A stretch of 34,075 nucleotides of DNA from a virus (IMGVR_UViG_3300048929_000179:85882-119956), one strand, 5' to 3'. Counted from the first letter of the stretch, positions 357 through 26,199 are shown. A program made the numbers and translations. The notes: generated by a model not told the origin, from the letters alone.

Positions 357-386
357 AAGCAAGTAAAATCTGACTTTGACAGGGAG
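357..386. repeat. 11-8-11 junction site 1
   Basis: AAGCAAGTAAA-ATCTGACT-TTGACAGGGAG. Confidence 0.7.
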
Positions 387-393
387 CGAAAAA

Positions 394-756
394 ATGCAAG
401 GAGCATGTAGTAATCAGGTCGTAAAATGCGTTATTTATACAAACGACGCAGAAGCAGGAGTTAAAAAGTTACTGGAAATTGAAACCGAAAAGAATACAAA
501 TGGAATTAAAACTACAAGAAAAATAATTTGTGAAAATTATAGTGAGATTGATTTTGACGATGAAGAAGAATGGATCGTACTTAAGGCGAGCGACACAGCG
601 AGAGGATATCGCTGGAGGAAGGCATGGGTGGATATTGACACATCTATTAGAGTGCTAGAGCGAATAATCAAACCTTCAGGTATGCTATATCAATGGGAAG
701 AAGAAAAATATTTCGATGGGAGGGTTTTAAATGAGCAATACCAAAAATATTCATGA
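394..756 (+). CDS. Hypothetical phage protein
   Basis: ORF track 376..756; ATG 394 has an AGGGAG RBS, whereas TTG 376 lies inside the repeat site. Confidence 0.7.
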   Translation: MQGACSNQVVKCVIYTNDAEAGVKKLLEIETEKNTNGIKTTRKIICENYSEIDFDDEEEWIVLKASDTARGYRWRKAWVDIDTSIRVLERIIKPSGMLYQWEEEKYFDGRVLNEQYQKYS

Positions 757-916
757 TGCATTTATTAATTGTGGTTTCACTGAGCAAGAAGCAGAGAAGC
801 TCGTTGAGTTCTCAAAAATGAATACCAATGACATTGGGGACGTTACAGTTAAAGAAGCCGTTGAGTGCTTAGAAAGAGAAATGAAGAAATATGGAGGATT
901 TAATGATGTTCGATGA
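731..916 (+). CDS. Small hypothetical protein
   Basis: 61-aa ORF with a GGAGGG RBS, overlapping its neighbours. Confidence 0.6.
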   Translation: MSNTKNIHDAFINCGFTEQEAEKLVEFSKMNTNDIGDVTVKEAVECLEREMKKYGGFNDVR

Positions 917-1163
917 CTCAATAATTAAAGAAAAAAGACCGGATTTAATTATGCTGAATAGGAATAGTGATGGTACATATGAAGTTAGATATTCTGGAAT
1001 AGCATATGTAAATAGTGAAAACATTATAAAAAGCGGGGAACTAATTATCCCAAGATGTAAAATTAAGTGGGATGATAAATTATTTATCCCATGGGCTGGA
1101 ATGGAAGAAATACTTATCAGCGATGATGGTAAAAATGAACTATTAAGAATCATAGAGGCTTAA
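903..1163 (+). CDS. Hypothetical protein
   Basis: GGAGG RBS before ATG 903. Confidence 0.65.
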   Translation: MMFDDSIIKEKRPDLIMLNRNSDGTYEVRYSGIAYVNSENIIKSGELIIPRCKIKWDDKLFIPWAGMEEILISDDGKNELLRIIEA

Positions 1164-1186
1164 TCAAATTGGCATTTTACAGTGAA
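1157..1186. repeat. 11-8-11 junction site 2
   Basis: GGCTTAATCAA-ATTGGCAT-TTTACAGTGAA; upstream stop TAA is in the left arm. Confidence 0.7.
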
Positions 1187-1200
1187 AAGTGAGGTGAAAC

Positions 1201-1479
1201 ATGAGGGCAATATTATATATCTATCTTGTAGTTACATTTTTAAACTGGATTTTATTTTGGCTGAATATGAATGTGGCTATAAATAAATGTAAATCTATGT
1301 TAACAAAAGAACAGTTAGAAGACTATAAAAATCGTAAAAGAAACTTGGCTTCAGATATTCTTTTGGGAATAAAGTCTTTAGCGATTTCGGCGGTGCCGAT
1401 AGTTAATGTATTCTTGTTATTTTGCTATTTATTTAGAAATGACTTTTTTGAGTACAAAATTGATAGTGATGTAAAGTAG
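1201..1479 (+). CDS. Small membrane protein (two hydrophobic segments)
   Basis: GAGGTGA RBS; hydrophobic N-terminal and C-terminal stretches. Confidence 0.7.
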   Translation: MRAILYIYLVVTFLNWILFWLNMNVAINKCKSMLTKEQLEDYKNRKRNLASDILLGIKSLAISAVPIVNVFLLFCYLFRNDFFEYKIDSDVK

Positions 1480-1782
1480 GTGAAGAAGGTGGTTGAGGTA
1501 ACGAGACACGCCGAAGAACGTTTAATTGAACGCTGTGGACTAAACAAGAAATCAGTACAGAGAATGTCCGACAAGGCTTTCAACGACGGGATTCGGCATG
1601 GTCAAACAAAGGGGAATTTGAAGAAATGGGTGGACGGATTATATTTTACGAATAAAACCGCCAACAATATCCGGTTATATGGTGACAAGGCATTTATATT
1701 TATGAATGAGAGATTGGTCACAGTGATTCAGATTCCAAGTAACTTGCGTAACGATATGAAAGTATTATTAAAACAAAAATAA
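1480..1782 (+). CDS. Hypothetical protein, possible DUF4258/RelE-like (BECR) fold
   Basis: N-terminal VTRHAEERLIER motif and C-terminal LVTV strand are typical of such small RNase-fold proteins; fold is inference. Confidence 0.5.
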   Translation: MKKVVEVTRHAEERLIERCGLNKKSVQRMSDKAFNDGIRHGQTKGNLKKWVDGLYFTNKTANNIRLYGDKAFIFMNERLVTVIQIPSNLRNDMKVLLKQK

Positions 1783-1809
1783 ATCAAAAATGAAAAGGAG
1801 AAATTACAT

Positions 1810-2076
1810 ATGGTAGTAACAGTAAAAAGTCCCTATAAGACAATCGAGGTTGAATCAGCAGAAGGAACATTGAGAATTGACGAAGGAATGAAGATTGTAT
1901 TTGCCACAGAAGCAGGAGAAAAAGTTAGCGGAACTCTAAACAAAATCAGCGGTAAGGGCAAAAAGGTTAAACTGCAAATTTCACCGTACGGATCAGAAAA
2001 AGAAGAAATTTGGGAATTAGCTGTAATGACTGAAACGAGTTTACATATCGACCATGAAGATGAGGAACTGGAATAA
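1810..2076 (+). CDS. Hypothetical protein
   Basis: AAGGAG RBS; 88 aa with an acidic tail. Confidence 0.7.
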   Translation: MVVTVKSPYKTIEVESAEGTLRIDEGMKIVFATEAGEKVSGTLNKISGKGKKVKLQISPYGSEKEEIWELAVMTETSLHIDHEDEELE

Positions 2077-2078
2077 AG

Positions 2079-2108
2079 GAGCCTATAAAAGATTCCTTTG
2101 ACCGAGAG
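2079..2108. repeat. 11-8-11 junction site 3
   Basis: GAGCCTATAAA-AGATTCCT-TTGACCGAGAG. Confidence 0.7.
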
Positions 2109-2114
2109 GCAATA

Positions 2115-2426
2115 ATGATAATAAAGAAAATATGGGAGGCAATATTAGAAATGGATAAATCGATGGGTCTTGTTAATAAAGCATATTGTGAACATCTTCC
2201 AGACACTGGCTGCAATATACCAATGCCTGAGAATGTGGTTGTGCCAAGGTACACAGATAAAATCTGTGAGAATTGTATTAAAGAAGATGTGTGCGCCTAT
2301 AAAGAAGAATGTACTCAGGCAGTAAAAGATATTCTTGAAATTGAAGGACGTGAAAACGTATTTGTTATCACAGAAATAAAGTGCAGGAAGTGGGTTTGTA
2401 AACCAATGGCTTCAAATACGAGATAA
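2115..2426 (+). CDS. Cys-rich hypothetical protein
   Basis: GAGG RBS; CENC...C...C cluster. Confidence 0.65.
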   Translation: MIIKKIWEAILEMDKSMGLVNKAYCEHLPDTGCNIPMPENVVVPRYTDKICENCIKEDVCAYKEECTQAVKDILEIEGRENVFVITEIKCRKWVCKPMASNTR

Positions 2427-2438
2427 AGGAGTGACATT

Positions 2439-2996
2439 ATGGAATCAAACATATGGTTGACGATAAATTTAATAATAGTGGCTTTGTCGGGATTGTGTTG
2501 TTTTGCTGGGATTGTAGCTCTTCCATTTGCTATATTATTCTCCGACTCCACCGAAAATCCAGATGGAGAAATTGAGTGGGCTTTACGTTTTATTATATGG
2601 TCATTCGTAGTTTGCATGTTATCTCTAGGAATGAATATTTTTGGAGAATGGAAAGTGAGCAAATTGCAATGGAATGTACCAGAAACTCCAAGTGCAGTAG
2701 AACATATCGTGTCGTTGAATGATAATAATCTTGTAAATGGGCGTTTTTACATGAGAAGAGGATACATAGATGAAAATTTATATTATCAATATATGGTCAA
2801 AACTTCTGATAATGGTATGGTTCCAAATAAGATTTCAGCACAGAATGCAACTATATACTACGATGAAGTAGACCCAAGAATTGAATGGTATAAATCAGAA
2901 AAACAATGGTTGTATTTTAAGGAGACTGAAACTAGGTTTAAAATATTTGTTCCTAGTGGAAGTGTAACTGAAGGTTATGATGTGGATCTGAAATAG
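2439..2996 (+). CDS. Membrane-anchored hypothetical protein
   Basis: AGGAG RBS; two N-terminal TM-like segments followed by a soluble domain. Confidence 0.75.
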   Translation: MESNIWLTINLIIVALSGLCCFAGIVALPFAILFSDSTENPDGEIEWALRFIIWSFVVCMLSLGMNIFGEWKVSKLQWNVPETPSAVEHIVSLNDNNLVNGRFYMRRGYIDENLYYQYMVKTSDNGMVPNKISAQNATIYYDEVDPRIEWYKSEKQWLYFKETETRFKIFVPSGSVTEGYDVDLK

Positions 2997-3023
2997 CCCA
3001 CAAAACATTTATTTTACATGGAG
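2994..3023. repeat. 11-8-11 junction site 4
   Basis: TAGCCCACAAA-ACATTTAT-TTTACATGGAG; begins at the upstream stop TAG. Confidence 0.55.
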
Positions 3024-3028
3024 GTGTC

Positions 3029-3256
3029 ATGACAGGACAGATAATTTTTAGAAAAACAAATCAAAAATCAAAGAGTGGGAAAGACGTATATATGGTAATT
3101 GGAGTCATTGGGCTTGACGATTCTGATGAGTATGAAGATGGAATTAAATATGATATTCTTGATATTTGTGCCAATAATCCAGAAGATGTGAGTGCCATAT
3201 GCGGAGATTTATCACCGGAAGAGCTATTAGAAGAAAAAATTTGGAGGGTAAAATAA
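3029..3256 (+). CDS. Small acidic hypothetical protein
   Basis: GGAGGTG RBS. Confidence 0.65.
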   Translation: MTGQIIFRKTNQKSKSGKDVYMVIGVIGLDDSDEYEDGIKYDILDICANNPEDVSAICGDLSPEELLEEKIWRVK

Positions 3257-3423
3257 TGGATGGAAGAAATAATAAAATTACCGTTGGATCTAGTAGTATC
3301 GGATTTGGTTGCGCTTTAGCAATCTGTATCTCGTGGACATCGTGGCATAGCATATGGTGGGCAATATTACATGGTTGTCTGAGTTGGATTTATGTAATTT
3401 ACTATGCGATTAATTACATGTAA
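3256..3423 (+). CDS. Small Trp-rich membrane protein
   Basis: GGAGG RBS, TAATG overlap; LAICISWTSWHSIWWAILHGCLSWIYVIYY. Confidence 0.7.
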   Translation: MDGRNNKITVGSSSIGFGCALAICISWTSWHSIWWAILHGCLSWIYVIYYAINYM

Positions 3424-3443
3424 AATGCTCATTTGAAAGGAGA
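3414..3443. repeat. 11-8-11 junction site 5
   Basis: TTACATGTAAA-ATGCTCAT-TTGAAAGGAGA; more degenerate. Confidence 0.5.
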
Positions 3444-3449
3444 AACACA

Positions 3450-3608
3450 ATGACAAGAGAACAAAAAATTGCGTTCCTATTATCAGGAGAAAAGGAACTT
3501 GGCAAGACATACGGGATTAACTACACAGATATATTTGGAGATTTTTCAACTGTTCCAGACGAAAAGTTAAATGATATGGTGGAAGAATTAGATTGGTTGT
3601 GGAAATAA
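3450..3608 (+). CDS. Small hypothetical protein (52 aa, not in the ORF track)
   Basis: AAGGAG RBS; MTREQKIAFLL...ELDWLWK*. Confidence 0.65.
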   Translation: MTREQKIAFLLSGEKELGKTYGINYTDIFGDFSTVPDEKLNDMVEELDWLWK

Positions 3609-3623
3609 TCAGAGGAGGATTAA

Positions 3624-3848
3624 ATGCAGAAACAGATTTGTGATATTTGCAAAATAAGAGATGCTACCAAAAAATTTAAAGTAAAAAGATCAACAAGATT
3701 CCTGAATCAAATTGCTAAGAATTATTTTAAATTTAGTTCTTGGAGTGGCTGGGAAAATATTGATATTTGTGATGAATGTGGTGAAAAATTATTTTATGTT
3801 GCTAAAAATAAGGGGAGTCATGAATCGACTGAGAAGGGAATTAAATAA
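3624..3848 (+). CDS. Zn-ribbon hypothetical protein
   Basis: CDIC...CDEC; GAGGAGG RBS. Confidence 0.7.
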   Translation: MQKQICDICKIRDATKKFKVKRSTRFLNQIAKNYFKFSSWSGWENIDICDECGEKLFYVAKNKGSHESTEKGIK

Positions 3849-3972
3849 TAAAGGTAAAAAAGAAGCAATTGACTGGTATCTGAACATTAATCCAAAGAGT
3901 AGATGTAGGAGAAAAATAACAATTTATAGGGAAATCTTGAGGCGATGTAGTGAGGGAGAACATTATGATTGA
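3820..3972 (+). CDS. Small basic hypothetical protein
   Basis: AGGGGAG RBS before ATG 3820. Confidence 0.45.
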   Translation: MNRLRRELNNKGKKEAIDWYLNINPKSRCRRKITIYREILRRCSEGEHYD

Positions 3973-4315
3973 TTGTTTTAATGGAAAATATGCATTTTTA
4001 AGTAATTTTTATGATAGTCCAATTGTTTATAATGGGTTGAGATATTCAAACAATGAAACAGCTTTTCAGGCACAGAAAACATTAGATGAAAATATCAAGA
4101 AGGAATTTACATTATTGCCACCTAATTTAGCAAAGCGTAAGGGTAGAAAAATATCATTAAGGCCCGATTGGGAAGAGGTTAAAGATTCTATAATGTATGA
4201 AATTTGCTTAGAAAAATTTGTGTACTCAGAAAATGTAAATCTATTTAAATTATTGCAGGATACGGAAGACGAAGAAATTATCGAGGGTAATTATTGGCAC
4301 GATAATTATTGGTGA
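3965..4315 (+). pseudogene. NADAR (YbiA-like) family protein, C-terminally truncated
   Basis: FLSNFY, ETAFQAQK, AKRKGR, RPDWE and EGNYWHDNYW motifs; stops at TGA where the conserved WG glycine is expected, and the usual N-x-LG-x-x-LM helix is missing. Confidence 0.75.
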
Positions 4316-4451
4316 ATTTGTGCGCTGCGATAGTCAGAAAATAAACTTCACATAGAGTTGTTTTATGTACCAGTCGGAGACGGCTGTTGTTTATAGAGTC
4401 ACTTTATTATAGGAGCAACAAAAATATTAACATATGGAGGAAACAAATTAT

Positions 4452-5669
4452 ATGAATTTTGAAATGGTAGGAAGAATCTCATTATCCAAGGAAAGCGAAA
4501 AGTTCAAGCCATGGAGTGAAACAAAATACGAATCCGGTTGGGCTAAGAGAAGAATTATGTTCAACACTACATGCGGAGATAACAGACACTTATTAACTGT
4601 TGATGCAGGAGCTTTCGCAGATGGTCATGGTGATGTCTATACATTTACTAAAGGCTCGGTTGATGAGAGTGGTAAAAAGACAAAAGGCGAATCTTTAAAG
4701 ATCCCATTCAAAGATAGACTTACATCAAATAGGCTGGCAGAAGTAGCGGAATTTAAGAAGTTTGTATTCGACTTAGAGAAACCGAACAGAAGATACAAAC
4801 TTGAAAAGGCTGTAGAAAAAGTTAAAGAGGGGACTTCTCTCACTGATGAAGAATTGAAGGAACTCGGAATTCAGAGCGAAGCTGAGTTAAATGACGCTTT
4901 AGAAAAGAGTAAAAAGAGACGGCATGAATTTATTTCAGAATGGGACTTTGCTGAATTCATCAAGAAAGTAATTGATAGTGAAAAGTATAAGGATAAGAAG
5001 TTTTTCATCAAGGGTAATGGTAATTATACATATTCAGAAAACAAGGAAAAAGTTTATGAGAACTATTATCCGAACCGGATTTACTTAGCTACCGATGATG
5101 CAGAAGAATATTCAACTGCAACATTTAACATTCTGTACAATAAGGATAGTTTTGATGATCTGAGTGTTGAAGAAAAAGGCAAATATTATGTAAATGGATT
5201 CATGATGGAATATGAAAACAATCGTAAATTAAATATTCCTTGCCCAGTGACTATTTCAATTCCTGTTTCTCCAAGTGATGCTAATGAGAAAGACAAGAAG
5301 AGATCTGAGTCAATCAAGAGAAAATTCATTGTTGAAGACGACACATGGAAAGAGTATGGAGTAATTGTTTCTATGTTAAATGGCGCACAGAAAACAGAGA
5401 TTACAGAAGATATGCTTACCGATGAACAGAAAGATGACTTGGAGTGTGGACTTATTACTATTGAAGATATTCGTGCAGAACTTGGCGGGAATGTTTATGG
5501 AGACAGAATCCAGGAGTACCAGTTCATCAAGCCAGCGAAGGGATTTACTAAGGGAAGAAACGATTCCATTTATACAGACGATGATATGGTAATTAAACCA
5601 ATCGAAAAAGAATTGCCAGAAGGCACAGAAGATCTTTTTGAAGACGACGACGAAGGTGATGATCTGTAA
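4452..5669 (+). CDS. Putative phage ssDNA-binding protein (SPbeta YorF-like position)
   Basis: Acidic C-terminal tail (EDLFEDDDEGDDL); first gene of the replication block; GGAGG RBS before ATG 4452. Function is inference. Confidence 0.55.
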   Translation: MNFEMVGRISLSKESEKFKPWSETKYESGWAKRRIMFNTTCGDNRHLLTVDAGAFADGHGDVYTFTKGSVDESGKKTKGESLKIPFKDRLTSNRLAEVAEFKKFVFDLEKPNRRYKLEKAVEKVKEGTSLTDEELKELGIQSEAELNDALEKSKKRRHEFISEWDFAEFIKKVIDSEKYKDKKFFIKGNGNYTYSENKEKVYENYYPNRIYLATDDAEEYSTATFNILYNKDSFDDLSVEEKGKYYVNGFMMEYENNRKLNIPCPVTISIPVSPSDANEKDKKRSESIKRKFIVEDDTWKEYGVIVSMLNGAQKTEITEDMLTDEQKDDLECGLITIEDIRAELGGNVYGDRIQEYQFIKPAKGFTKGRNDSIYTDDDMVIKPIEKELPEGTEDLFEDDDEGDDL

Positions 5670-5732
5670 TATTTAAAACAATAATATAACCATGTCGTGC
5701 AATTAATTAAAGAATAAAAGGAGCAATATATA

Positions 5733-6887
5733 ATGAAAAAACCACAGGTAAATACAATCAATACAGATATTAAAAACTTGTCTATCTATTTACGTTCAAC
5801 TAAAAAATTTGGTAAAACAACACTTTTCAGAGATATGATTTTAGAGAAGTACGGAGATCCAACGAGAGGACTTTTGGTAGGTTGTGGCAATGAAATTGGG
5901 TATAAGATGTTGGATAACTTGAATGTTGTTCAGATCAGTACATATAAGGATATGGTTGAGTTAAAGGATTGGCTAATTAGTACAAAAGGGAAAGAGCATA
6001 ATATTGAGATTGTTGCTTTTGATACAGGAGATGAGTTAGCTCTTATCGCTGATAAGGAAACAATTAGACAGAGTAACTTGGAGAACCCGAATAAAAAATG
6101 TAAATCTGTTAAAGCAGCTATGGGTGGATATACAGCAGGAGAAAAATACTCTGCTAACGACATCATTAAGCCGTTTATGTCCGAGTTACAGTTAGCGGGG
6201 TTTGGAACATGGGTAATTGCACATACGAAATTTAAGCAAATCAAAGAAAAGGGTGGTTTAGAGGAAGACGGATATATGCAGCTTACATCTAACTTAGGTT
6301 CCGATTATGAGGCAGCATTTGGAGATATTTTTGATGTTACTTTAACCGGAGTTATTGACAGAGATTTTGAGGAGAAGAAGGTCGGAGATAAAGTTAAAAA
6401 GTATTCAACTGGCACTATTAGAAAACTTTACTTCCGTGGTACTCCAATCATTGATGCAGGTGGAAGATTTGCTGATGACGCAGTACCAGAATACATGGTA
6501 TTTGATAAACCCAATATGGCTCATGAATTCATTAAAATTGTCGAAGATGGAATGGAAAAATCTAAAACCCTATTAAATGGGAAGAAATCAAAAGTGTCAG
6601 AAAAAGTAAATAAAAAGAAAGAGGAGAAAGTTGAGGAAGAAACAGCTCCATTTGAGGAAGAAAATTTAGACATTGACGACGACATTGTGGAAAATGATAC
6701 CGATGCTAATACCGAAGAAACTGAATCAGATTATCCAGAAGATTTAATCGGAACCATTAGAACAATGTTTAAAGAATGTTCTGATCCATCTACCAAATCA
6801 AAAGTAAAAGAAGTGATTTCTGAACACGGAAAACTTAACGATGTTCCTGAGTCTGATTTAAAGAAAATTTATGATACATTGAAATAG
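5733..6887 (+). CDS. AAA_24/Sak4-like P-loop ATPase (YorG-like)
   Basis: Walker A variant STKKFGKTT, Walker B VAFDT, WVIAH motif; acidic linker. Confidence 0.75.
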   Translation: MKKPQVNTINTDIKNLSIYLRSTKKFGKTTLFRDMILEKYGDPTRGLLVGCGNEIGYKMLDNLNVVQISTYKDMVELKDWLISTKGKEHNIEIVAFDTGDELALIADKETIRQSNLENPNKKCKSVKAAMGGYTAGEKYSANDIIKPFMSELQLAGFGTWVIAHTKFKQIKEKGGLEEDGYMQLTSNLGSDYEAAFGDIFDVTLTGVIDRDFEEKKVGDKVKKYSTGTIRKLYFRGTPIIDAGGRFADDAVPEYMVFDKPNMAHEFIKIVEDGMEKSKTLLNGKKSKVSEKVNKKKEEKVEEETAPFEEENLDIDDDIVENDTDANTEETESDYPEDLIGTIRTMFKECSDPSTKSKVKEVISEHGKLNDVPESDLKKIYDTLK

Positions 6888-6937
6888 GTGAACGAGAGGG
6901 ACTTCCCTCTCCTCTCCTATAAAAGAGAGGTAATCGC

Positions 6938-7423
6938 ATGTTGGTTAAATGCCGTATTTGCGGAAATAAAATTGATAGAGATACCGCATACAAGGTTAGA
7001 AATAAAAATGTAAATGAGTATTACTGTAGTCAAGATGAGTATTTAGAGAAACTAGAGAAGATTAAAGTTAAATACAATACATATGAAAAGTTGTTTGATA
7101 TTTTTGGGAGAAAAATCACCAATACCGCTTTATTTAAAGAGATTACGGAACTAGAAAATGTGTATGGATATGAAAAAATATACCAGTATTTGTGTGAAAA
7201 TGAAAGATATCTTTCTAACGTTTTAAGCAAAGATTTCAAAAGTGAATATGCTCAAATCAGATATTTTTCAGCCATTCTTAAGAACAGTTTAGCAGATTTT
7301 AAAATTGAAAGTAAACAACCAGAAAAAAGGATTGAAATAGATATGCCAACAGTGAAATACACTCAAAGAAAAAAGCGCAAGTCATTACTTGAGATTGAAC
7401 AGGAAGTGGGTGAAGAATTATAG
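6938..7423 (+). CDS. Zn-finger replication-associated protein (YorH-like)
   Basis: CRIC...YYC at the N-terminus; directly upstream of the helicase. Confidence 0.6.
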   Translation: MLVKCRICGNKIDRDTAYKVRNKNVNEYYCSQDEYLEKLEKIKVKYNTYEKLFDIFGRKITNTALFKEITELENVYGYEKIYQYLCENERYLSNVLSKDFKSEYAQIRYFSAILKNSLADFKIESKQPEKRIEIDMPTVKYTQRKKRKSLLEIEQEVGEEL

Positions 7424-8973
7424 CTGAATATGTTACTGGAGTAAAAGATAAATATCCACCACAACTACTAAAAGGACGCATCGAGGCAGAGGGTAATGTG
7501 GTAAGCTGCTTCTTCAAAGACATGTTATTACTTGATGAAACCACGTTTGAGCAGAAAGATTTTATTTCAAGCGATGGATTGTTTTACTTTTCATTATTAA
7601 AGCAATTAAGAGCAAAAGGTTTTTATTCATTAGATGAAGTAACAATTCTCTCAAATATGTCGGAAGATGTGATTGAAAGGTATGATGCTATTGGTGGATG
7701 GGACGCCATACAACATCAAATTGATATTATTAACCTTCAGAATTTTGATACATATATAGATATTTTATATCGAGAAAACACTTTGATTAATATGTATGAT
7801 GATGGTTTTAATTTACTAAAAGAAATTGATGTAAATGGAAAGAGTATTATTCCGTTAAAATTGTTCCGTAAAATGTGCGCTGAAGAAGTCACAGATTGGT
7901 ACGAAGCCAGAATCACCTCATATGGAACAGGGTATTCAAGCAAAGTACTTGAAGAAGAGGAAATAGACTTTGATGATGAGTTTATAGAAAATTGTCAAGA
8001 TGGGCTTGAAAATGGAGTTCCATTTGATGTTGGAGGTTATGATATAAACGGGGAAGAAATTAATTGTTTTCCATTTCTTTCAAGACAGGTAAATGGGCTA
8101 TTACCTAAAACTTTAACTATGATTGGTGGATATTCCTCAACAGGAAAGTCTACGTGGCTTGTAACGATAATTATGGCACTTCTTAATTATGATAAAAAAG
8201 TGTTAATAATATCAAACGAAGAAAGTGTTAAAAAGTTTAAGATTAAATTTATGGTTTGGCTTCTTGCGAAAAGAAATCGTTATTTTAAATTAACAAAAAA
8301 GAAGATGATGAGTGGTGATCTGACGCAGGAAGATAGAAAGCAATTGTCGATAGTGCAAGAGTATTGGAGAAACAACTATAAAGGAAGAGTTAAATTCATT
8401 TCTATTGCAGATGCAAACATGTCTGTTGTTAAAAAGAAAATTAGAGAAAATGTTCTTAGATATGGATACGATACTGTTTTATATGACACTTTTAAATTAG
8501 ACTTTGATACTGTTGGTAATACAAGACAAGATCTATCTCTTATTCAAGATAGTAGAGATTTAGACTCAATTGGGAAAAAATATAATGTTATTATGTTGGC
8601 TTCTTTGCAACTTGCTATCCATACAATGGGTAAACTATTCCTTGATAGTTCAGTTCTTTCAAATAGCAAACAGATCAAAGAGGTACTTGAGGGGCTATAT
8701 CTTATGCGGAATGTGTATGATGAAGAATTAGATCCTGACAACAAAAAATATTACTGTCACCCATTTAGATTAAAAAAAGTTAATGACAAATGGATTGAAG
8801 AAGAATATCAGCCAGACAGAAACGCAGTATGGAGAATGCTGTTCTGTGATAAAGCTAGATCTGGAGCTAATTCGTCTGATAGCGGGGTTGCTTATTTGTT
8901 AAAGTTCGACGGTGATCACGCAATATTCAGAGAAACATGCATGGCACGCCCTAAACATGGTTCAATACTATAG
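7420..8973 (+). CDS. dnaB: DnaB-like replicative helicase, probable ATA start at 7420
   Basis: Walker A GYSSTGKST, ISNE, YDT and SLQL motifs. The frame stays open upstream of GTG 7498 through a DnaB-like N-terminal motif (IEAEGNVV) to ATA 7420, behind a GGGTGA SD. Confidence 0.85.
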   Translation: MAEYVTGVKDKYPPQLLKGRIEAEGNVVSCFFKDMLLLDETTFEQKDFISSDGLFYFSLLKQLRAKGFYSLDEVTILSNMSEDVIERYDAIGGWDAIQHQIDIINLQNFDTYIDILYRENTLINMYDDGFNLLKEIDVNGKSIIPLKLFRKMCAEEVTDWYEARITSYGTGYSSKVLEEEEIDFDDEFIENCQDGLENGVPFDVGGYDINGEEINCFPFLSRQVNGLLPKTLTMIGGYSSTGKSTWLVTIIMALLNYDKKVLIISNEESVKKFKIKFMVWLLAKRNRYFKLTKKKMMSGDLTQEDRKQLSIVQEYWRNNYKGRVKFISIADANMSVVKKKIRENVLRYGYDTVLYDTFKLDFDTVGNTRQDLSLIQDSRDLDSIGKKYNVIMLASLQLAIHTMGKLFLDSSVLSNSKQIKEVLEGLYLMRNVYDEELDPDNKKYYCHPFRLKKVNDKWIEEEYQPDRNAVWRMLFCDKARSGANSSDSGVAYLLKFDGDHAIFRETCMARPKHGSIL

Positions 8974-9011
8974 GAGGATATACAGTATGTAAACTTGTAG
9001 ATTTAACAGGA

Positions 9012-9740
9012 ATGAGGTTTGGCAGGCTTATTGTATTAAAAAGAACAGACATTAAAAAAGGCAAATATGTTTACTGGGATTGCATATGTGATTGTGGAAA
9101 TAAGACTACAGTAGCTGGGCGCAACTTAAAAATGGGGTCAACAAGTTCTTGTGGATGTCTTAGAATTGAAAATACAATTAAACACAATAAAAATATGGAT
9201 AAATCTATTCGTTGTAAAAAAGTAAAAGAAAACAAATATGATTTGTCAGATGATTATGGAAAATGTTATTCAGTTAATAATGACGAAATATTATTTGATT
9301 TAGAAGATTATGACTTAATATCTAATTATTATTGGAGGGTAGTTGTAAGAAATAATTGCAATTATAAAAGAGTGATGACAAAAATTAATGGAGTTGAAAT
9401 ACCAATGCACAAGGTGATTACAAGAAAATCATATTTAGATCATGAAAATCGAAATCCATTAGACAACAGGAAGAGCAATCTTAGAGAAGCAACGTTTTGT
9501 CAAAACTCATCAAATAGAACAAAACAGTCAAATAATACAAGTGGAGTAATAGGAGTAGTATATAGAACAGATTCGGATAAGTGGGAAGCACGCATTAATA
9601 TTAATAAAAAAGAAACTAAATTAGGCGTATACATAAATTTTGTAGATGCAGTTATAGTGAGACTGAACGCAGAAAGGGAATATTATGGTGAATTTGCTCC
9701 ACAAAAACACTTATACAAACAGTATGGAATAGAAGAATAA
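9012..9740 (+). CDS. HNH endonuclease with C-terminal AP2 domain (free-standing homing endonuclease)
   Basis: (DLTG)MRFGRL...WDCICDCG; DHENRNPLDNRKSNLR HNH motif; SGVIGV...KWEARI AP2 motif. Confidence 0.85.
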   Translation: MRFGRLIVLKRTDIKKGKYVYWDCICDCGNKTTVAGRNLKMGSTSSCGCLRIENTIKHNKNMDKSIRCKKVKENKYDLSDDYGKCYSVNNDEILFDLEDYDLISNYYWRVVVRNNCNYKRVMTKINGVEIPMHKVITRKSYLDHENRNPLDNRKSNLREATFCQNSSNRTKQSNNTSGVIGVVYRTDSDKWEARININKKETKLGVYINFVDAVIVRLNAEREYYGEFAPQKHLYKQYGIEE

Positions 9741-9762
9741 ATAACAGGAATTGGTGTGATAT

Positions 9763-15598: not shown

Positions 15599-15606
15599 GT
15601 GAAAAC

Positions 15607-16137: not shown

Positions 16138-16150
16138 TGGTAAAAATGTA

Positions 16151-16218
16151 TGTGCAATATGCACTAATATACGGTTGATATACACATATAAACAACGATA
16201 ATTTGTGTATATTGCACA
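16151..16218. promoter_or_regulatory. Pair of TGTGYA-N3-TGCACW palindromes (operator-like), also forming one large inverted repeat
   Basis: TGTGCAATATGCACT at 16151-16165 and TGTGTATATTGCACA at 16204-16218. Confidence 0.5.
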
Positions 16219-16223
16219 ACTAA

Positions 16224-16253
16224 ATCACCGAAAAACACTGGTTTTACAGAGAA
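16224..16253. repeat. 11-8-11 junction site 6
   Basis: ATCACCGAAAA-ACACTGGT-TTTACAGAGAA. Confidence 0.7.
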
Positions 16254-16271
16254 TAAAAATTGGAGGCAAGC

Positions 16272-16640
16272 ATGAAAGATATCTTTGAAGAAATTATTGA
16301 ATGGTTAAAGTACGAACAATATCAACATGAAATTTTTGCTAGACTAAATGATAAATATACACCAATACATGAGAGTCGAATAGGCGGACTAGGCGATGCA
16401 ATAGATATTATACGGAAAACTACTGATGAACTATGGGTATCTGCTGATGAGGAACCTGATACAAATGGAGAGTATATTATTCGTTGTAGAAGATGCCACG
16501 ATGATAAAGAAGTTGTTTCATCTGCAAAATATTGTTTTGGAGAGTGGAAGATAAGTAATGCCTTTGATTTAATATGTTGGACTACATATTCAAGGTTATT
16601 TAATCGTGATGAATGCGAATTAGAAGAAAGTGAGGATTAA
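16272..16640 (+). CDS. Hypothetical protein with DUF551-like C-terminus
   Basis: GGAGG RBS; WVSADEEPDTNGEYII...W pattern. Confidence 0.6.
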   Translation: MKDIFEEIIEWLKYEQYQHEIFARLNDKYTPIHESRIGGLGDAIDIIRKTTDELWVSADEEPDTNGEYIIRCRRCHDDKEVVSSAKYCFGEWKISNAFDLICWTTYSRLFNRDECELEESED

Positions 16641-16908
16641 ATATGGAACTAGACTTATACAAATTTTTCAGAGTAGTAATGTATCCTCCTATGAACCTAC
16701 AGAGTGGGATGGAGAAAAACATTATTTAGTATGGTTATATTTCTGGGGAATAGCTGATTTCGTAAAGTTAATGGAAGGATTTGGGGTAGATTTTTCAGAA
16801 GGTGGATACGATGTGAATCTTCAGAGGGATGGTGTTTGTGTAGATTTGAATGATTTGTATTTATACGATATTGATTTAGATAAAGTATTTGATATGGAGG
16901 AGGATTGA
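16630..16908 (+). CDS. Hypothetical protein
   Basis: 92-aa ORF overlapping its neighbours. Confidence 0.55.
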   Translation: MRIKYGTRLIQIFQSSNVSSYEPTEWDGEKHYLVWLYFWGIADFVKLMEGFGVDFSEGGYDVNLQRDGVCVDLNDLYLYDIDLDKVFDMEED

Positions 16909-17222
16909 TGAAAAATCAATTAATTTCAGAATGGCTTTTAAAAGCAAAGATAAAGGAATTAGAAGAAAATAATAAAACCACAGGGAGAGATGAGTTTTAT
17001 TATGTAATGTGCAAAAGAGAACTTGAAATCATCAAGAGATTAAATATTCAGATTGATATGTTTGGTGAAGATGATGAATTCTATAATAGACTATCTGACG
17101 AGACACTTGACGTGTATTTCACGCCTACACCAAAAAGATATGAAATAGAGAAGAGTCAAGAATTATATAGGTACTTAGAAGGGTTCGTGCATGAAATGGA
17201 CGCTATAAAGCGGTCAGAGTAG
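16908..17222 (+). CDS. Hypothetical protein
   Basis: GGAGGAGG RBS. Confidence 0.7.
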   Translation: MKNQLISEWLLKAKIKELEENNKTTGRDEFYYVMCKRELEIIKRLNIQIDMFGEDDEFYNRLSDETLDVYFTPTPKRYEIEKSQELYRYLEGFVHEMDAIKRSE

Positions 17223-17251
17223 AATAAATAGAACTTCAATTTGACAGGGAA
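17222..17251. repeat. 11-8-11 junction site 7
   Basis: GAATAAATAGA-ACTTCAAT-TTGACAGGGAA. Confidence 0.7.
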
Positions 17252-17267
17252 CTAGGAGGTGAACATC

Positions 17268-17414
17268 ATAAAGAATATTTTAGAAATGAATGTAGATGAA
17301 ATAAAGGAATTAGTAAACACTTATAATAAAACAGGAGAATGGACTGGAGAAGGTGGGATAGGAGATATGTTTGATAGGCTGGCTGAATTATGGAATGAAT
17401 TGGGAGAAGAATAA
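17268..17414 (+). CDS. Small hypothetical protein (48 aa), probable ATA start
   Basis: Perfect AGGAGGTGA SD 5 nt before ATA; open to TAA at 17412-17414. Confidence 0.55.
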   Translation: MKNILEMNVDEIKELVNTYNKTGEWTGEGGIGDMFDRLAELWNELGEE

Positions 17415-17582
17415 ATGCACTCAGTTGGAGATATAGTAGAATTTAGAAATAAGCCATACATAGTTATAAATGAAGATTTTGAATGTGGTGGTATATGTAT
17501 TAGGAATTGTAAGACTGAAGAAATACAAGCCAGTTATTCTGATAGTAAAATATGTTGGAGAAGAAGTAATTACGGATTATGA
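17415..17582 (+). CDS. Small hypothetical protein (55 aa)
   Basis: GGGAG RBS; MHSVGDIVEF... (SH3/KOW-like start). Confidence 0.5.
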   Translation: MHSVGDIVEFRNKPYIVINEDFECGGICIRNCKTEEIQASYSDSKICWRRSNYGL

Positions 17583-17630
17583 TCAAGAATCATTGAGTGA
17601 AATAAGAAGAGGAATGTAGGGAGAAACAAG

Positions 17631-17987
17631 ATGACATATCAAGAATATATCAATAAAAAGAATGAGTTAGAAAGTTGCATCAGAAAACTTGAGGGCGAAT
17701 GGAATCTTAATAAAAAAGATGACTATGCAAATAATGTTGGAAAATATTACAAATCTTCTAATGGACTGGAATTTGGGCGTATAACATCAATGGGAGGCAA
17801 TCGTCCGGAGTATCTGTGCAAAGAAATTTCTAAAGAAACCAGCGGAGGATTTTATTATTCCACAATGGAAGAGTATGACGTCACTTATTTTTTACGAAAT
17901 ATGTCGTGGATCACTGAGGGGGAATTTAATCACATTCTAAACATGACCATTGACAATGTTAAATGTGAATTTGTGGGAGGCTGCTAA
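17631..17987 (+). CDS. Hypothetical protein
   Basis: AGGGAG RBS. Confidence 0.7.
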   Translation: MTYQEYINKKNELESCIRKLEGEWNLNKKDDYANNVGKYYKSSNGLEFGRITSMGGNRPEYLCKEISKETSGGFYYSTMEEYDVTYFLRNMSWITEGEFNHILNMTIDNVKCEFVGGC

Positions 17988-18238
17988 TGGAACTACTTCA
18001 CAAAATTGAAAAATATGCTAGAGAATTGGGTTATGATTTTCTAATCAGGGTTGATGACGAAGAAGGGGATTGGTTTGTACATTTTTGCAAATACGAACCA
18101 ATTGAATACAAATACGAAGGACATACAAAAACTAAGACGCTTACCGACGATTTCGCATGTGTATATACTAATGTCTTAGAAGACACATTAAAATGGCTGA
18201 TTGACCGGATTGAAAACGAGTTAATTAAGGAGAGTTAA
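17987..18238 (+). CDS. Hypothetical protein
   Basis: GGAGG RBS, TAATG overlap. Confidence 0.7.
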   Translation: MELLHKIEKYARELGYDFLIRVDDEEGDWFVHFCKYEPIEYKYEGHTKTKTLTDDFACVYTNVLEDTLKWLIDRIENELIKES

Positions 18239-18242
18239 CGAT

Positions 18243-18434
18243 ATGAGAGGATTAGAAGTTGTAGCATGTCTATCATTAATGATGATAATCGGAGCCAGTG
18301 ATATGCTTTTATTTAAAACAAGAGTTTTGTCTACATGGATAAATTCTAAATCTGAAATGAAGAGATATTTATCAAAGAATGACTATTATATTTGGAGTTG
18401 TAGTAATAAGGAGGGTTCACATGGCAGTAAGTAG
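18243..18434 (+). CDS. Small hypothetical protein, hydrophobic N-terminus
   Basis: AAGGAG RBS; the 3' end may be frameshifted. Confidence 0.45.
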   Translation: MRGLEVVACLSLMMIIGASDMLLFKTRVLSTWINSKSEMKRYLSKNDYYIWSCSNKEGSHGSK

Positions 18435-18723
18435 AAACGCTTTATATAATATGGATCAGGCTTCGCAGGAATTAATGATTCAAGAAAATATTCTTAAATG
18501 TCTAATTGACATTCAGACAACTTTGCAGCTTTTAGTCGATAAAGAAGTCGTCACAAGAGAAGAAGTTGCCGAAATGCGAAGTAAGGTAACCAATCAATCG
18601 AGATATAAGGGAACCATCGAGAGTATTCAGCAAATGAAAGATGGGGTTGAGTATTATAAAAATAACCCAGAAGCACATCTTAGAGACGTGCTTAAAGCAA
18701 AAATGGAAGGGAAAGTAAAATAG
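18421..18723 (+). CDS. Hypothetical helical protein
   Basis: AAGGAGG RBS before ATG 18421. Confidence 0.7.
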   Translation: MAVSRNALYNMDQASQELMIQENILKCLIDIQTTLQLLVDKEVVTREEVAEMRSKVTNQSRYKGTIESIQQMKDGVEYYKNNPEAHLRDVLKAKMEGKVK

Positions 18724-18734
18724 AGAGGGCTTAA

Positions 18735-18923
18735 ATGGGAAATGTTGAGCGTCATATTGTTAAAAGTTTAGATGACTTATTAAACTGTAAATACCCAAAC
18801 TGCGAAGAATGTAGTGTATTAAGACAGGACGAGGGTGACGATGAGCCGTGGTGTGGATATGATTCAGTGATTAGATGCGCAATTACATATATAGAATCAG
18901 AAGAATCAAGTAAGTCAAAGTAG
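18735..18923 (+). CDS. Small Cys-rich hypothetical protein
   Basis: GAGG RBS; C-x4-C-x2-C...C. Confidence 0.6.
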   Translation: MGNVERHIVKSLDDLLNCKYPNCEECSVLRQDEGDDEPWCGYDSVIRCAITYIESEESSKSK

Positions 18924-18937
18924 AGTTTGATAGCGAT
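18908..18937. repeat. 11-8-11 junction site 8
   Basis: AAGTAAGTCAA-AGTAGAGT-TTGATAGCGAT; upstream stop TAG is in the spacer. Confidence 0.7.
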
Positions 18938-19824: not shown

Positions 19825-19858
19825 TTGTTGTATAAAACAAAACCACAAGATATAGAAT
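19812..19858. promoter_or_regulatory. Tandem NrdR boxes
   Basis: ATACAACATATAGTTG (19812) and CCACAAGATATAGAAT (19843) resemble acaCwAtATaTwGtgt; starts are 31 bp apart, the typical NrdR tandem spacing. Confidence 0.6.
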
Positions 19859-19862
19859 AAAA

Positions 19863-19892
19863 TTCACAGTGAAATCAGTCTTTGACTGGGAA
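19863..19892. repeat. 11-8-11 junction site 9 (most symmetric copy)
   Basis: TTCACAGTGAA-ATCAGTCT-TTGACTGGGAA; arms 9/11 complementary. Confidence 0.75.
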
Positions 19893-20073: not shown

Positions 20074-20103
20074 TGTAACACAAAGGGATAATTTTATCGC
20101 ATT
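20074..20103. repeat. 11-8-11 junction site 10 (degenerate)
   Basis: TGTAACACAAA-GGGATAAT-TTTATCGCATT; abuts the upstream stop. Confidence 0.35.
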
Positions 20104-20196
20104 CCAATTCACGCACCGACTGCTTAATGCCATAATAAGACACGCGGCCGAAGTGACGAAATAAAAATTACATAAATAAAGGAGTAACTATATAAC

Positions 20197-20388
20197 TTGA
20201 GACTAACTAACGAATTTAAAAGAACTATCAATAAACTACAGGACGACAAGCATCTATTTATCAGGGTTGACGGGACAGACTACATTATAGACACAATCGA
20301 AAAAGACATGGGCTCGTTAGAGCGATCATCTGACTGGTGCTACGTTGCAATACCACACAGAGCCGATGGAATGGGCATTAAAAAATAG
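20197..20388 (+). CDS. Small hypothetical protein
   Basis: AAGGAG RBS, TTG start. Confidence 0.6.
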   Translation: MRLTNEFKRTINKLQDDKHLFIRVDGTDYIIDTIEKDMGSLERSSDWCYVAIPHRADGMGIKK

Positions 20389-20412
20389 TTTTAATAGATT
20401 GAAATAAAATGG

Positions 20413-20441
20413 TTGACATTACGGAATGAGCGGTATATAAT
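20413..20441 (+). promoter_or_regulatory. Consensus sigma-A/sigma-70 promoter for the ligase operon
   Basis: TTGACA (20413-18), 17-bp spacer, TATAAT (20436-41), with an AT-rich upstream tract. Confidence 0.8.
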
Positions 20442-23290: not shown

Positions 23291-23293
23291 AAG

Positions 23294-23713: not shown

Positions 23714-23720
23714 GAGAATT

Positions 23721-23890: not shown

Positions 23891-23903
23891 AGGAGGAGTG
23901 TAG

Positions 23904-24359: not shown

Positions 24360-24372
24360 AGGGGAATAAAAA

Positions 24373-24663
24373 ATGAAATTTAGAAAGAAACCAGGAGTAA
24401 TCGAAGCATTTCAGTATGATGGGGATTTTATTAATGGGCGAGGAAATTATTATATTCCAGAATGGGCTATAAATGCACACAAAAGGGGGATCTTGTCTTT
24501 TGCAGAAGATCATCAGTCGGGACTTCCGTATGAACTATTTGTAAAGACGCTCGAAGGAGTGATGAAAGCAAATGTAGGAGATTACGTAATTCAAGATGTA
24601 AATGGAGAATTATATCCATGTAAACCAGACGTTTTTGATAAAACATATGAATTAGCTGAATAA
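24373..24663 (+). CDS. Conserved phage protein of the RKKP...TLEG...GDY...YPCKPD family (PGDYG-like); candidate nucleotide-signal sponge
   Basis: MKFRKKPGVIEAFQ...KTLEGVMKANVGDYVI...GELYPCKPDVFDKTYE. Confidence 0.65.
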   Translation: MKFRKKPGVIEAFQYDGDFINGRGNYYIPEWAINAHKRGILSFAEDHQSGLPYELFVKTLEGVMKANVGDYVIQDVNGELYPCKPDVFDKTYELAE

Positions 24664-24664
24664 A

Positions 24665-24694
24665 TTCACGGTAAAACTGCACTTTGATAGAGAG
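24665..24694. repeat. 11-8-11 junction site 11
   Basis: TTCACGGTAAA-ACTGCACT-TTGATAGAGAG. Confidence 0.75.
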
Positions 24695-24714
24695 AGGAAG
24701 ATGAGATAAATTAT

Positions 24715-25197
24715 ATGACAGAAAAGCAAAGAATTATTTTGGAAAAATACTTGACAAAAGATAGAATTGATAAATTAAATCAAATGAGTTTTAAAACATC
24801 GTCTAGTTTAATTGATATGATTCTTCATTTTAAAAGTTACCATACGGTTTGCGGTGAAATGTGTAATATTCCTTTTTTAATTAGAACTCCAACTGAAGAA
24901 GAAGTATTCGTCATTGAGGAGATGGTAAATAAAAACAGGTCATTGTACGGATTGGCAACAGACGAATATGCCTCGTTATTTAAGGTGAAATATATCCCTA
25001 GATGCAAAGAGTTATTTGTTGTAAAACAGACATGGTTTAAGGGTATGAGTAATTCTCCAACATGTAATTATGCAAATCTACATAAGGACGGTAGTAAGGT
25101 CGAGGGGATTTATAACATGTTATTTGATGCAGAAATATACTCAATTGTTGGATTAACGAAATCATATGCAGATGAATTACAAAAGACCATAAAATAA
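24715..25197 (+). CDS. Hypothetical protein flanked by sites 11 and 12
   Basis: 160-aa ORF. Confidence 0.65.
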   Translation: MTEKQRIILEKYLTKDRIDKLNQMSFKTSSSLIDMILHFKSYHTVCGEMCNIPFLIRTPTEEEVFVIEEMVNKNRSLYGLATDEYASLFKVKYIPRCKELFVVKQTWFKGMSNSPTCNYANLHKDGSKVEGIYNMLFDAEIYSIVGLTKSYADELQKTIK

Positions 25198-25212
25198 TAC
25201 TTCTACCTACTT
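25183..25212. repeat. 11-8-11 junction site 12 (AAG-type arms on both sides)
   Basis: AAGACCATAAA-ATAATACT-TCTACCTACTT; upstream stop is in the spacer. Confidence 0.5.
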
Positions 25213-25229
25213 AAAGAAAGGAAAGAGTC

Positions 25230-25484
25230 ATGTCAATAGAAAATAAATATAGAGAATACGAATTAAAAAGAGATACTAATTTTCCTACAGCAATACATAC
25301 AAGAATTAATGACAGATATAGAATATCGAGCATTTACAAAAGAGCGTCTACAAATCAAATAATGTATTTCTGGGAGACGTTTATATGGGACGGAGAACAA
25401 GTATGGGAAAGTGAATCTCAGTATAATGCGGATAAAGTATTAGAGTATCATTACACCAAGTATTTTGAACTTGGAGGATTGTAA
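25230..25484 (+). CDS. Hypothetical protein
   Basis: AAGGA RBS; WETFIWD motif. Confidence 0.65.
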   Translation: MSIENKYREYELKRDTNFPTAIHTRINDRYRISSIYKRASTNQIMYFWETFIWDGEQVWESESQYNADKVLEYHYTKYFELGGL

Positions 25485-25514
25485 AAGCACATCAATCGAC
25501 GACTTGATGGAGAA
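25485..25514. repeat. 11-8-11 junction site 13
   Basis: AAGCACATCAA-TCGACGAC-TTGATGGAGAA. Confidence 0.7.
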
Positions 25515-25539
25515 GTATATAAAACAATAGGGGGTAAGC

Positions 25540-26172
25540 ATAATTAGAACAATAATTATTGGAGATATACACGGCTGCTACTTTACATTATTAAATCTAA
25601 TAGAAAAAATTAATTATGATAAACAAAATGATAAATTAATATTTCTTGGTGATTACATAGACCGTGGTAATAACAGTTATGAAGTTGTGGATTATTTAAT
25701 TAAACTGCAAAGAGACGTAGGCAAAGATAATTGTATATGCTTGTTGGGCAATCATGAATACATGGCTTACACAGATGAGCTGTTGTGGAAAAGTAATGGC
25801 GGCAATAAAACAATTAAAAGCTACTATAAAAACAATACTCATAAAAATGCGCATCATTACTGGTTTAAGCAATTGCCATTATTACATGAGACAGATGAAT
25901 TTATTTGTTGTCATGCAGGACTGCCCAATCCAATCACCAAAGACAATAATTTAGAGGATATATTATGGGATCGTTATTGGATAAAAACTAACACAGAACC
26001 AAACGAAAAAACTGTAATTTTCGGGCATACTCCTTCAACAAATTTAGCGTACAAAACTATTAATGGAAACATTTGTATTGATACCGCCTGTGTATTTGGA
26101 TATCAACTGTGCGCCATGGTGATAGGGGATCAGGTTGAATTCGTTTATGAAAACAAAAACGTCAAAGATTAG
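25540..26172 (+). CDS. PPP-family Ser/Thr metallophosphatase (lambda phosphatase-like), ATA start
   Basis: GDIHG and GDYIDRG lie upstream of the first canonical start (GTG 25687); GNHE, HAG, FGHTP, IDT follow; in-frame stop at 25528-30. Confidence 0.9.
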   Translation: MIRTIIIGDIHGCYFTLLNLIEKINYDKQNDKLIFLGDYIDRGNNSYEVVDYLIKLQRDVGKDNCICLLGNHEYMAYTDELLWKSNGGNKTIKSYYKNNTHKNAHHYWFKQLPLLHETDEFICCHAGLPNPITKDNNLEDILWDRYWIKTNTEPNEKTVIFGHTPSTNLAYKTINGNICIDTACVFGYQLCAMVIGDQVEFVYENKNVKD

Positions 26173-26199
26173 GTAATCAAATTATAGATTGACCGGGAA
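26170..26199. repeat. 11-8-11 junction site 14
   Basis: TAGGTAATCAA-ATTATAGA-TTGACCGGGAA; begins at the upstream stop TAG. Confidence 0.7.

Follow-up and report, generated by a model that had tools for sequence, protein, structure and literature searches.

The DNA considered here is the last 34 kb (34,075 nucleotides; hereafter the window) of a 119,956-bp IMG/VR virus record, phage G0, and our subject is a two-armed sequence found at about 50 gene junctions in the early half of that genome, with 13 strong sites in the window (Table 1). Between 1 and 54 kb, G0 carries minus-strand genes, among them those for terminase, portal, lysin and a YonO-type RNA polymerase; from 54 to 120 kb it carries plus-strand small early genes, a DnaE-type replication module, ligase, NrdDG and an integrase. 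In its gene layout, in its YonO homologue and in its possession of three tyrosine recombinases (yomM, yopP and yopR in SPbeta) it resembles Bacillus phage SPbeta and, on these features, G0 is an SPbeta-like phage. Among GenBank phages, no nucleotide match was found to the polymerase gene or to window positions 1–4400. The evidence presented below suggests that the junction sites are most likely fixed crossover points for the swapping of genes between phages.

The junction element and its sites

The element has the consensus C.C.GTMAAA-N6-TTTKAC.G.G, in which two inverted arm cores of 6 nt enclose a spacer of equal length; weaker outer positions, C.C at the left end and G.G mirroring it at the right, bring the overall geometry to 10-6-10. 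An earlier note on the window had described the sites as 11-8-11; however, the A and T that end its 8-nt spacer are arm bases, so that the anatomy is 6-6-6 with weaker outer positions. The same note suspected that the GNGA of the right arm may partly reflect Shine–Dalgarno (SD) selection. The SD may contribute but is not the whole explanation, because GNGA mirrors the left C.C as part of the dyad. In other respects its description stands: the 14 sequences are present where it placed them, 10 right arms read TTKAYNGNGA, 11 spacers are of the form A-N6-T with no two identical, and 11 upstream stop codons lie within the site or about 2–3 nt from it. Twelve of the 14 are also strong matches to a position weight matrix (PWM), but those at 20074 (PWM score −11.4) and 25183 (5.9) are not, and the site at 31832 had been missed.

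The enrichment of the motif, which the note had proposed as a check, is pronounced. A refined, iterated 40-column PWM has 47 plus-strand matches, against 0.7 expected, and 45 of these fall between 59 and 118 kb. When the whole genome is set against Markov shuffles, the pattern TTGACNGNGA occurs 17 times on the plus strand (1.6 expected) and never on the minus strand, and AA-N8-TTKAYNGNGA occurs 25 times (1.9 expected). Moreover, when the window sites are left out of the matrix, the remaining 32 sites give a PWM that places nine window sites above the 95th percentile of the maxima of shuffled windows, and none on the minus strand. De novo discovery with a Gibbs sampler returned only the Shine–Dalgarno motif, and plain k-mer enrichment did not pick up the degenerate junction motif.

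All sites in G0 are co-oriented, on the strand of the genes, and the six middle bases differ at every junction. In 19 of 45 sites the stop codon of the upstream gene (TAA, TAG or TGA) occupies positions 2–4 of the left arm, and the right arm precedes the start codon by a median of about 19 nt. Within the window no site is found at 3.4–16.2, 19.9–24.7 or 26.2–31.8 kb, as the earlier note had observed. Two weak extra sites have PWM windows starting at 16867 and 18179.

Table 1. Junction sites in the window and tyrosine recombinase genes of G0 (window positions unless marked as genome; arms in capitals, spacers in lower case; G006 is the provirus introduced in the text)
Feature	Position	Strand	Score	Remarks
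Site GTAAAA-tctgac-TTTGAC	359..385	+	PWM 32.4	same spacer in G006 at the collinear place; homology block begins at 361
Site ATCAAA-ttggca-TTTTAC	1159..1185	+	PWM 23.1	spacer common to G006, both arms different; upstream stop ends 1 nt inside the arm
Site ATAAAA-gattcc-TTTGAC	2081..2107	+	PWM 24.9	spacer common to G006; homology block stops at 2109
Site ACAAAA-cattta-TTTTAC	2996..3022	+	PWM 20.1	spacer common to G006; intervals on either side unrelated
Site GTAAAA-tgctca-TTTGAA, left border of the 12.8-kb replication-module interval	3416..3442	+	PWM 17.3	G0/G006 identity island takes in site, SD and first codons
Site GAAAAA-cactgg-TTTTAC, right border of the replication-module interval	16226..16252	+	PWM 27.4	13-nt identity island AACACTGGTTTTA amid unrelated G006 sequence
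Site ATAGAA-cttcaa-TTTGAC	17224..17250	+	PWM 23.4	spacer and arms the same in G006; both adjoining intervals 0% homology
Site GTCAAA-gtagag-TTTGAT	18910..18936	+	PWM 22.0	spacer common to G006, left arm different
Site GTGAAA-tcagtc-TTTGAC	19865..19891	+	PWM 30.3	
Site GTAAAA-ctgcac-TTTGAT	24667..24693	+	PWM 29.6	spacer common to G006, both arms different; upstream homology block stops at 24650, next interval 0%
Site ATCAAT-cgacga-CTTGAT	25487..25513	+	PWM 23.6	sole strong window site without a same-spacer partner in G006
Site ATCAAA-ttatag-ATTGAC	26172..26198	+	PWM 21.1	G006 identity island is the site plus SD as far as the ATG; flanks unrelated
Site GTAAAA-tatacc-TTTGAC	31832..31858	+	PWM 20.4	common to G006, within a homologous block
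Tyrosine integrase, 424 aa	32696..33970	+	Pfam Phage_integrase, 96.8 bits	SAM-like N-terminal domains; probably the prophage integrase
YomM-like Xer-type recombinase, 341 aa	genome 39680–40705	−		outside the window
311-aa recombinase	genome 71260–72195	+		outside the window

Spacers, arms and breakpoints in related phages

Three proviruses were compared with G0: G006, of 126 kb, which was reached by an exact-sequence search with site 19865, and G1 and G2, which have the replication module in common with G0. SPbeta and Goe12 formed a second pair, independent of G0 and G006. G006 has the same TTTGAC-type arms as G0 (TTTGACNGNGAA, 11 copies on one strand and none on the other) and 38 of the 50 spacers are identical in the two genomes, in strictly monotonic order, against 0.66 expected by chance and 1–10 for control hexamers taken at other offsets; 12 of the 13 strong window sites are among the 38. 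SPbeta and Goe12 behave alike, with 29 of 34 spacers common and collinear (0.3 by chance). Partner sites with an identical spacer, as expected of core sites, are thus found in both pairs.

What lies between the sites is often unrelated. In 21 of the 37 inter-site intervals, G0 and G006 have 0% nucleotide homology and unequal lengths (in the window, 2076–2991, 2991–3411, 16221–17219, 17219–18905 and 24662–26167), and six intervals of SPbeta and Goe12 also combine 0% homology with differing lengths. In the latter pair, islands of identity of 16–24 nt, centred on the palindrome, are found between unrelated genes. The interval of 12.8 kb that holds the replication module (3411–16221) shows 1% homology to G006 and 83–89% identity to G1 and G2; the whole module (helicase, primase region, RecJ-like protein, DnaE and ERCC4 nuclease; window 3416–16252) thus appears to behave as a single swappable block. 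The persistence of sites and spacers while the intervening genes are replaced lends good support to the shuffling of modules at the sites, as the earlier note had proposed, although crossovers are not confined to the spacer, as detailed below.

Breakpoints are also in excess close to the sites. Between G0 and G006, 8 of 46 breakpoints lie at most 15 nt from the centre of a site, against 1.15 expected, and between SPbeta and Goe12 the figures are 12 of 70 against 0.57. In the second pair a breakpoint occurs in 14 of 29 site-bearing junctions and in 36 of 180 others (Fisher p = 0.002), a comparison that is not fully clean because the site-bearing junctions are longer.

The three parts of the site are not equally conserved. 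At least 76% of the spacers are intact between G0 and G006, while the mean backbone identity of 82.5% would leave about one third of neutral 6-mers; the spacer is therefore the best-kept part of the site. At the 38 common junctions the arm hexamers, counted from the comparison table, are identical in 12 cases on the left and 19 on the right, a contrast with the spacers that is inflated because the pairs were picked by their identical spacers. Judging from this comparison, the arms tend to travel with the flanking sequence. With G1 and G2, G0 has three and five spacers in common, none of them in the window, against about 0.4–1 expected, which is modestly above the control offsets and suggestive.

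Further searches used cassette proteins and single sites as queries. Homologues of a 160-aa cassette protein are present in other contigs without a site, which indicates that the site is a property of the junction rather than of the cassette. Among the 36 loci obtained with the 185-aa and 230-aa cassette proteins as queries, a weak version of the motif was seen only in L061. An exact search with site 354 found it absent from viral and genome contigs, and one with site 16221 found it absent from viral contigs; a metagenome match to site 24662, in a contig of 55% GC, was rejected as a chance match. The tRNA nucleotidyltransferase protein, used as a query for relatives, found nothing.

At the early-gene junctions of SPbeta itself, TCT..ATAAAA-N6-TTTTAT..AGA is present in about 34 copies. 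Their spacing is strict, with TAAAA-N6-TTTTA occurring 34 times, against once with N5 and three times with N7. Judged by this likeness, the G0 sites are the local version of a junction element common to SPbeta-like phages (TAAAA-N6-TTTTA in SPbeta), and a search of the SPbeta literature found no description of it. The arms are dyad-symmetric and both halves switch together by lineage, being GTMAAA/TTTKAC in G0 and G006 and ATAAAA/TTTTAW in SPbeta; such joint change is as expected of a dimeric DNA-binding protein. Weaker variants of the motif occur in G1, in G2 and in a 140-kb phage. In other phages that carry a YomM-like recombinase, TAAAA-N6-TTTTA was counted against a reversed-pattern control: the excess is clear in Tsamsa (23 versus 3) and Geobacillus E3 (30 versus 7), moderate in Staphylococcus phage 6ec (14 versus 6), and small or absent in Lactococcus phage 949 (7 versus 3) and Enterococcus phage VFW (7 versus 4). 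This unevenness means either that the association of the motif with the YomM-like recombinase is imperfect or that the arms differ in those phages. The Enterocloster phage PMBT24 (L009 and L010) has no N6 palindromes; it has 10 copies of TAAAA-N5-TTTTA, against 1–4 in other genomes, and these may be a variant with a 5-bp centre.

Several other features lie in or around the replication module and the sites. A small gene at window 3950–4315 is 5′ of the replication module in G0 and about 5 kb 3′ of the polymerase in G1 (71% identity), neither copy having a clear flanking site. An open reading frame of 242 aa (9012–9740), which separates the gene of the DnaB-like helicase from the following replication gene and has a weak HNH_3 match, probably encodes a free-standing homing endonuclease. 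AT-rich inverted repeats are found between the upstream stop codon and the site at 16140–16225 and 19825–19865; that 5′ of site 19865 (ACATACAACATATAGTTGTTGTAT) is kept in G006. The stretch 20074–20441 comprises about 340 nt of non-coding sequence, about 88% conserved in G006, and ends with a perfect TTGACA-17-TATAAT promoter (20413–20441) just 5′ of the NAD-ligase gene. Rfam has nothing there, and neither Rfam nor tRNA scans found anything in the rest of the window; the stretch may harbour a regulatory region or a small RNA. The YonO-type RNA polymerase, which lies outside the window (genome 46680–49817, minus strand), is read as two open reading frames, of 554 and 380 aa.

Proposed core sites of a recombinase and the competing explanations

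Two inverted arms of about 10–13 bp around a fixed spacer of 6–8 bp are the architecture of the core sites of tyrosine recombinases, such as dif, lox and FRT, and the parallel drawn in the earlier note fits the revised geometry as well. Its proposal to look for extra recombinases is also answered, as G0 encodes three tyrosine recombinases with the Phage_integrase domain of Pfam. Read by eye, the sequence of the YomM-like protein has matches to the catalytic R, K, H-x-x-R, H and Y; the 311-aa recombinase shows R, HxxR, H and Y. A YomM-like recombinase is found in G0, G1, G2, G005, G006 and SPbeta, and is not found in PMBT24, which lacks the motif. The 311-aa recombinase lies in a block that is 78% identical in G006, which has the same arms; in G2, with different arms, the identity is at most 25%, and in G1, whose arms are also different, there is no match. 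The candidate enzymes would thus be the 311-aa recombinase, the similarity of which tracks the type of arm, or the YomM-like Xer-type recombinase.

Considering the sequence evidence as a whole, we regard it as an even question whether a phage tyrosine recombinase uses the sites as its core sites and reads the spacer as an overlap “address” that limits exchange to equivalent junctions. On this proposal, co-infection, or infection of a lysogen, would bring two related genomes together, a recombinase dimer would bind the two inverted arms, and strands would be exchanged across the 6-bp spacer. As each junction has its own spacer and strand exchange requires identical overlaps, recombination would take place between equivalent junctions only. 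The product would be a full-length chimera with an unchanged order of genes, in which reassortment in register would extend from accessory genes to the replication module itself, and deletions between different junctions of one genome would be avoided. Each arm would move with the adjoining gene block and the spacer would remain. The proposal accounts jointly for the common dyad, the fixed spacing, the unique but conserved centres, the single orientation and the orphan recombinases. The earlier note invoked the tolerance of some integrases for non-identical coupling sequences; no such tolerance is needed, as the data point to identical spacers at partner junctions.

Heterospecific lox and FRT variants, with common arms and different spacers, are used for recombinase-mediated cassette exchange; only matching spacers recombine, and the result is an ordered replacement. 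That exchange is a laboratory design with two sites, whereas G0 would have a natural array of about 50 sites acting between genomes. That such arrays give SPbeta-like phages a natural equivalent of recombinase-mediated cassette exchange, in which a phage tyrosine recombinase acts on about 50 heterospecific sites with common arms and a unique 6-bp overlap as “address”, and related genomes exchange any of their segments in register, is a tentative idea to which we give slightly less than an even chance. In the pdif sites used by XerC and XerD in Acinetobacter plasmids, a 6-bp spacer lies between imperfect inverted arms, each of about 11 nt and one of them better conserved than the other, and the sites flank mobile modules; they alternate in orientation, rely on host Xer proteins and number a handful per plasmid. 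The G0 sites are like them in the inverted arms, the 6-bp spacer, the better conservation of one arm and the flanking of gene modules. They are unlike them in number and orientation (about 50, all co-oriented, where pdif sites alternate), in belonging to a phage with recombinases of its own and in having conserved spacers specific to each junction.

Several observations weigh against a recombinase core site. Compared with the right arm, the left is far weaker, and the upstream stop codon frequently lies in it; the constant position just 5′ of the SD would also fit an expression signal. The spacer/arm contrast is subject to the selection of pairs mentioned above. Some islands of identity run beyond the site into the SD and start codon and, at site 19865, homology already sets in about 85 nt further 5′, within the final codons of the preceding gene, and the breakpoint there is accordingly not at the site; crossovers are consequently not restricted to the spacer. 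The YomM-like proteins of G0 and G006 are just 30% identical despite the same arms. In one DNA run, possibly from the source sample and available only as contigs, there were no excision products or recombinant joints, and the excision and insertion of modules supposed in the earlier note thus finds no evidence. Finally, islands of 17–45 nt might suffice for phage single-strand-annealing recombinases, and a Sak4-like AAA_24 protein is encoded at window 5733–6887.

The last point leads to the main rival, homology-driven recombination at conserved linkers. Here the palindrome would have another primary role, for example as the site of a regulator or nucleoid protein, the short conserved linker, made up of site, unique spacer and SD, would be the sole homology amid otherwise unrelated neighbouring sequence, and a relaxed phage annealing recombinase of the Sak4 or RecT type would make the crossovers. 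The promoter-early stem-loops (PeSLs) of T4-type phages are a precedent, in which regulatory repeats drive modular shuffling (Arbiol et al., 2010; PMC2839356). Like the G0 sites, PeSLs are short repeats between small, non-essential early genes; where related phages differ by an insertion, deletion or replacement, the difference ends at a PeSL, as replacements here end at a site. PeSLs, however, combine sigma-70 promoters with terminator stem-loops, and any two copies can recombine through their homology, with the formation of mini-circles; the G0 sites have neither promoter nor stem-loop, and show instead a fixed 6-6-6 dyad with a centre that is unique to each copy and kept in order. A role for annealing is favoured by the range of the islands, from 13 to about 45 nt, which often take in the SD and the first codons, by the breakpoint 85 nt away from its site, and by the Sak4-like protein of the window, to which may be added SPbeta yorG, annotated as Sak4-like. 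Yet at many common junctions both arms differ and contiguous identity falls to about 8–13 nt around the spacer, which is very short for homologous recombination. Annealing also leaves unexplained why one dyad of fixed geometry stands at all the junctions and why spacers are better kept than arms. Moreover, the primary role of the palindrome cannot be named, as a sigma-A promoter, SPBRE (see below) and a hairpin are all out. We consider this explanation rather unlikely, with more in its favour than either of those that follow.

A second rival sees in the sites an expression signal only, be it a promoter for a modified polymerase, an operator or roadblock, or a signal in the mRNA; mosaic borders would lie there since viable recombinants break between genes. 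The strict co-orientation with the genes and the short distance from right arm to start codon are in keeping with this, as is the lineage-specific sequence of the arms. Internal signals would also be useful, given the few promoters and terminators in the window: sigma-70-like promoters are fewer than in shuffles of positions 1–34075 (72 versus 96.4 and 48 versus 63.9) and intrinsic terminators are rare, which suggests very long transcription units for the early genes. Neither scan, for promoters or for terminators, showed an association with the sites. A sigma-A promoter was rejected: there is no information outside the 30-bp motif, no −10 element follows the right-arm TTGACA at 17 nt and no −35 element lies upstream, nor does any −10 or −35 element accompany the sites at a constant spacing. 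The SD adjoins the right arm in several sites, leaving no room for a downstream start site. A T7-type polymerase or a sigma factor was also set aside, as neither PF00940 nor PF04542 (sigma-70 region 2) was found in G0; the blank for PF00940 is weak, since its control was negative in 14 of 14 control genomes. Nor do the sites resemble a promoter for YonO: in SPbeta, the region 5′ of yonK where YonO starts transcription lacks the element on its strand. A single late operon of SPbeta is driven by YonO, with only 37 late genes depending on it; the polymerase requires just one late promoter, and the early genes are independent of it (PMC5467207). An RNA or single-stranded DNA hairpin is likewise rejected, as the arms do not covary: the mean number of paired positions per site is 4.47, against 4.61 with the arms shuffled among sites (P = 0.97).

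The earlier note had offered, as its own alternative, an operator for a repressor such as MrpR. The element bound by MrpR, SPBRE, is, like the G0 element, repeated in an SPbeta-like phage, and MrpR is a repressor with the tyrosine-recombinase fold (PMC10516654). However, SPBRE measures 15 bp and is found at ten promoter regions, and MrpR ChAP-seq in SPbeta gave ten peaks only, at SPBRE (PMC10516654), whereas the G0 element has about 50 copies at gene junctions. As read from the repeats beside SPbeta aimR and yorE, SPBRE is roughly CAAATACAAAAAATATGTATA and bears no relation to the palindrome of the junctions; it thus appears to be a different sequence from the approximately 34 palindromes of SPbeta, some of which it adjoins. 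The G0 sites therefore differ from an MrpR operator in sequence, copy number and location. More generally, the site of a regulator does not predict conserved spacers that are specific to each junction and lie between unrelated genes. Taken together, an expression signal alone fits the data less well and seems to us quite improbable.

An integron-like system, in which cassettes are excised as circles and inserted at sites that belong to the cassette and fold as single-stranded DNA, also fits less well and is highly improbable: one-gene or few-gene units in a single orientation, sites that overlap stop codons and extra tyrosine recombinases recall integrons, which use an enzyme of this class, but attC is longer (57–141 bp, against 26–28 bp), folds as a single strand and moves with its cassette, whereas in the G0 sites arm complementarity does not exceed that imposed by the consensus, the spacer stays with the junction and not with the gene, homologues of a cassette gene elsewhere lack a site, and unique spacers would require excision between neighbouring sites to use non-identical overlaps. 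The integron analogy of the earlier note is thus not borne out.

Modular evolution in large temperate phages

How unrelated genes are swapped cleanly at the gene borders of phages is an open debate, in which illegitimate recombination followed by selection is set against special linkers. In G0 such linkers are visible, as a common dyad with a junction-specific centre that outlasts the replacement of everything around it. If a recombinase reads the sites, this would explain how accessory genes, including those for anti-defence and metabolic functions, are reshuffled in large temperate phages of Firmicutes while the order of the genes is kept; YomM and YopP, the orphan tyrosine recombinases of SPbeta, would gain a function, and the sites would form a collection of orthogonal recombination sites ready for use. 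As both SPbeta and Bacillus subtilis can be manipulated genetically, the idea is directly testable. Modular evolution is said to have been postulated by Botstein in 1980; if the idea is true, these phages would possess a dedicated machine for it.

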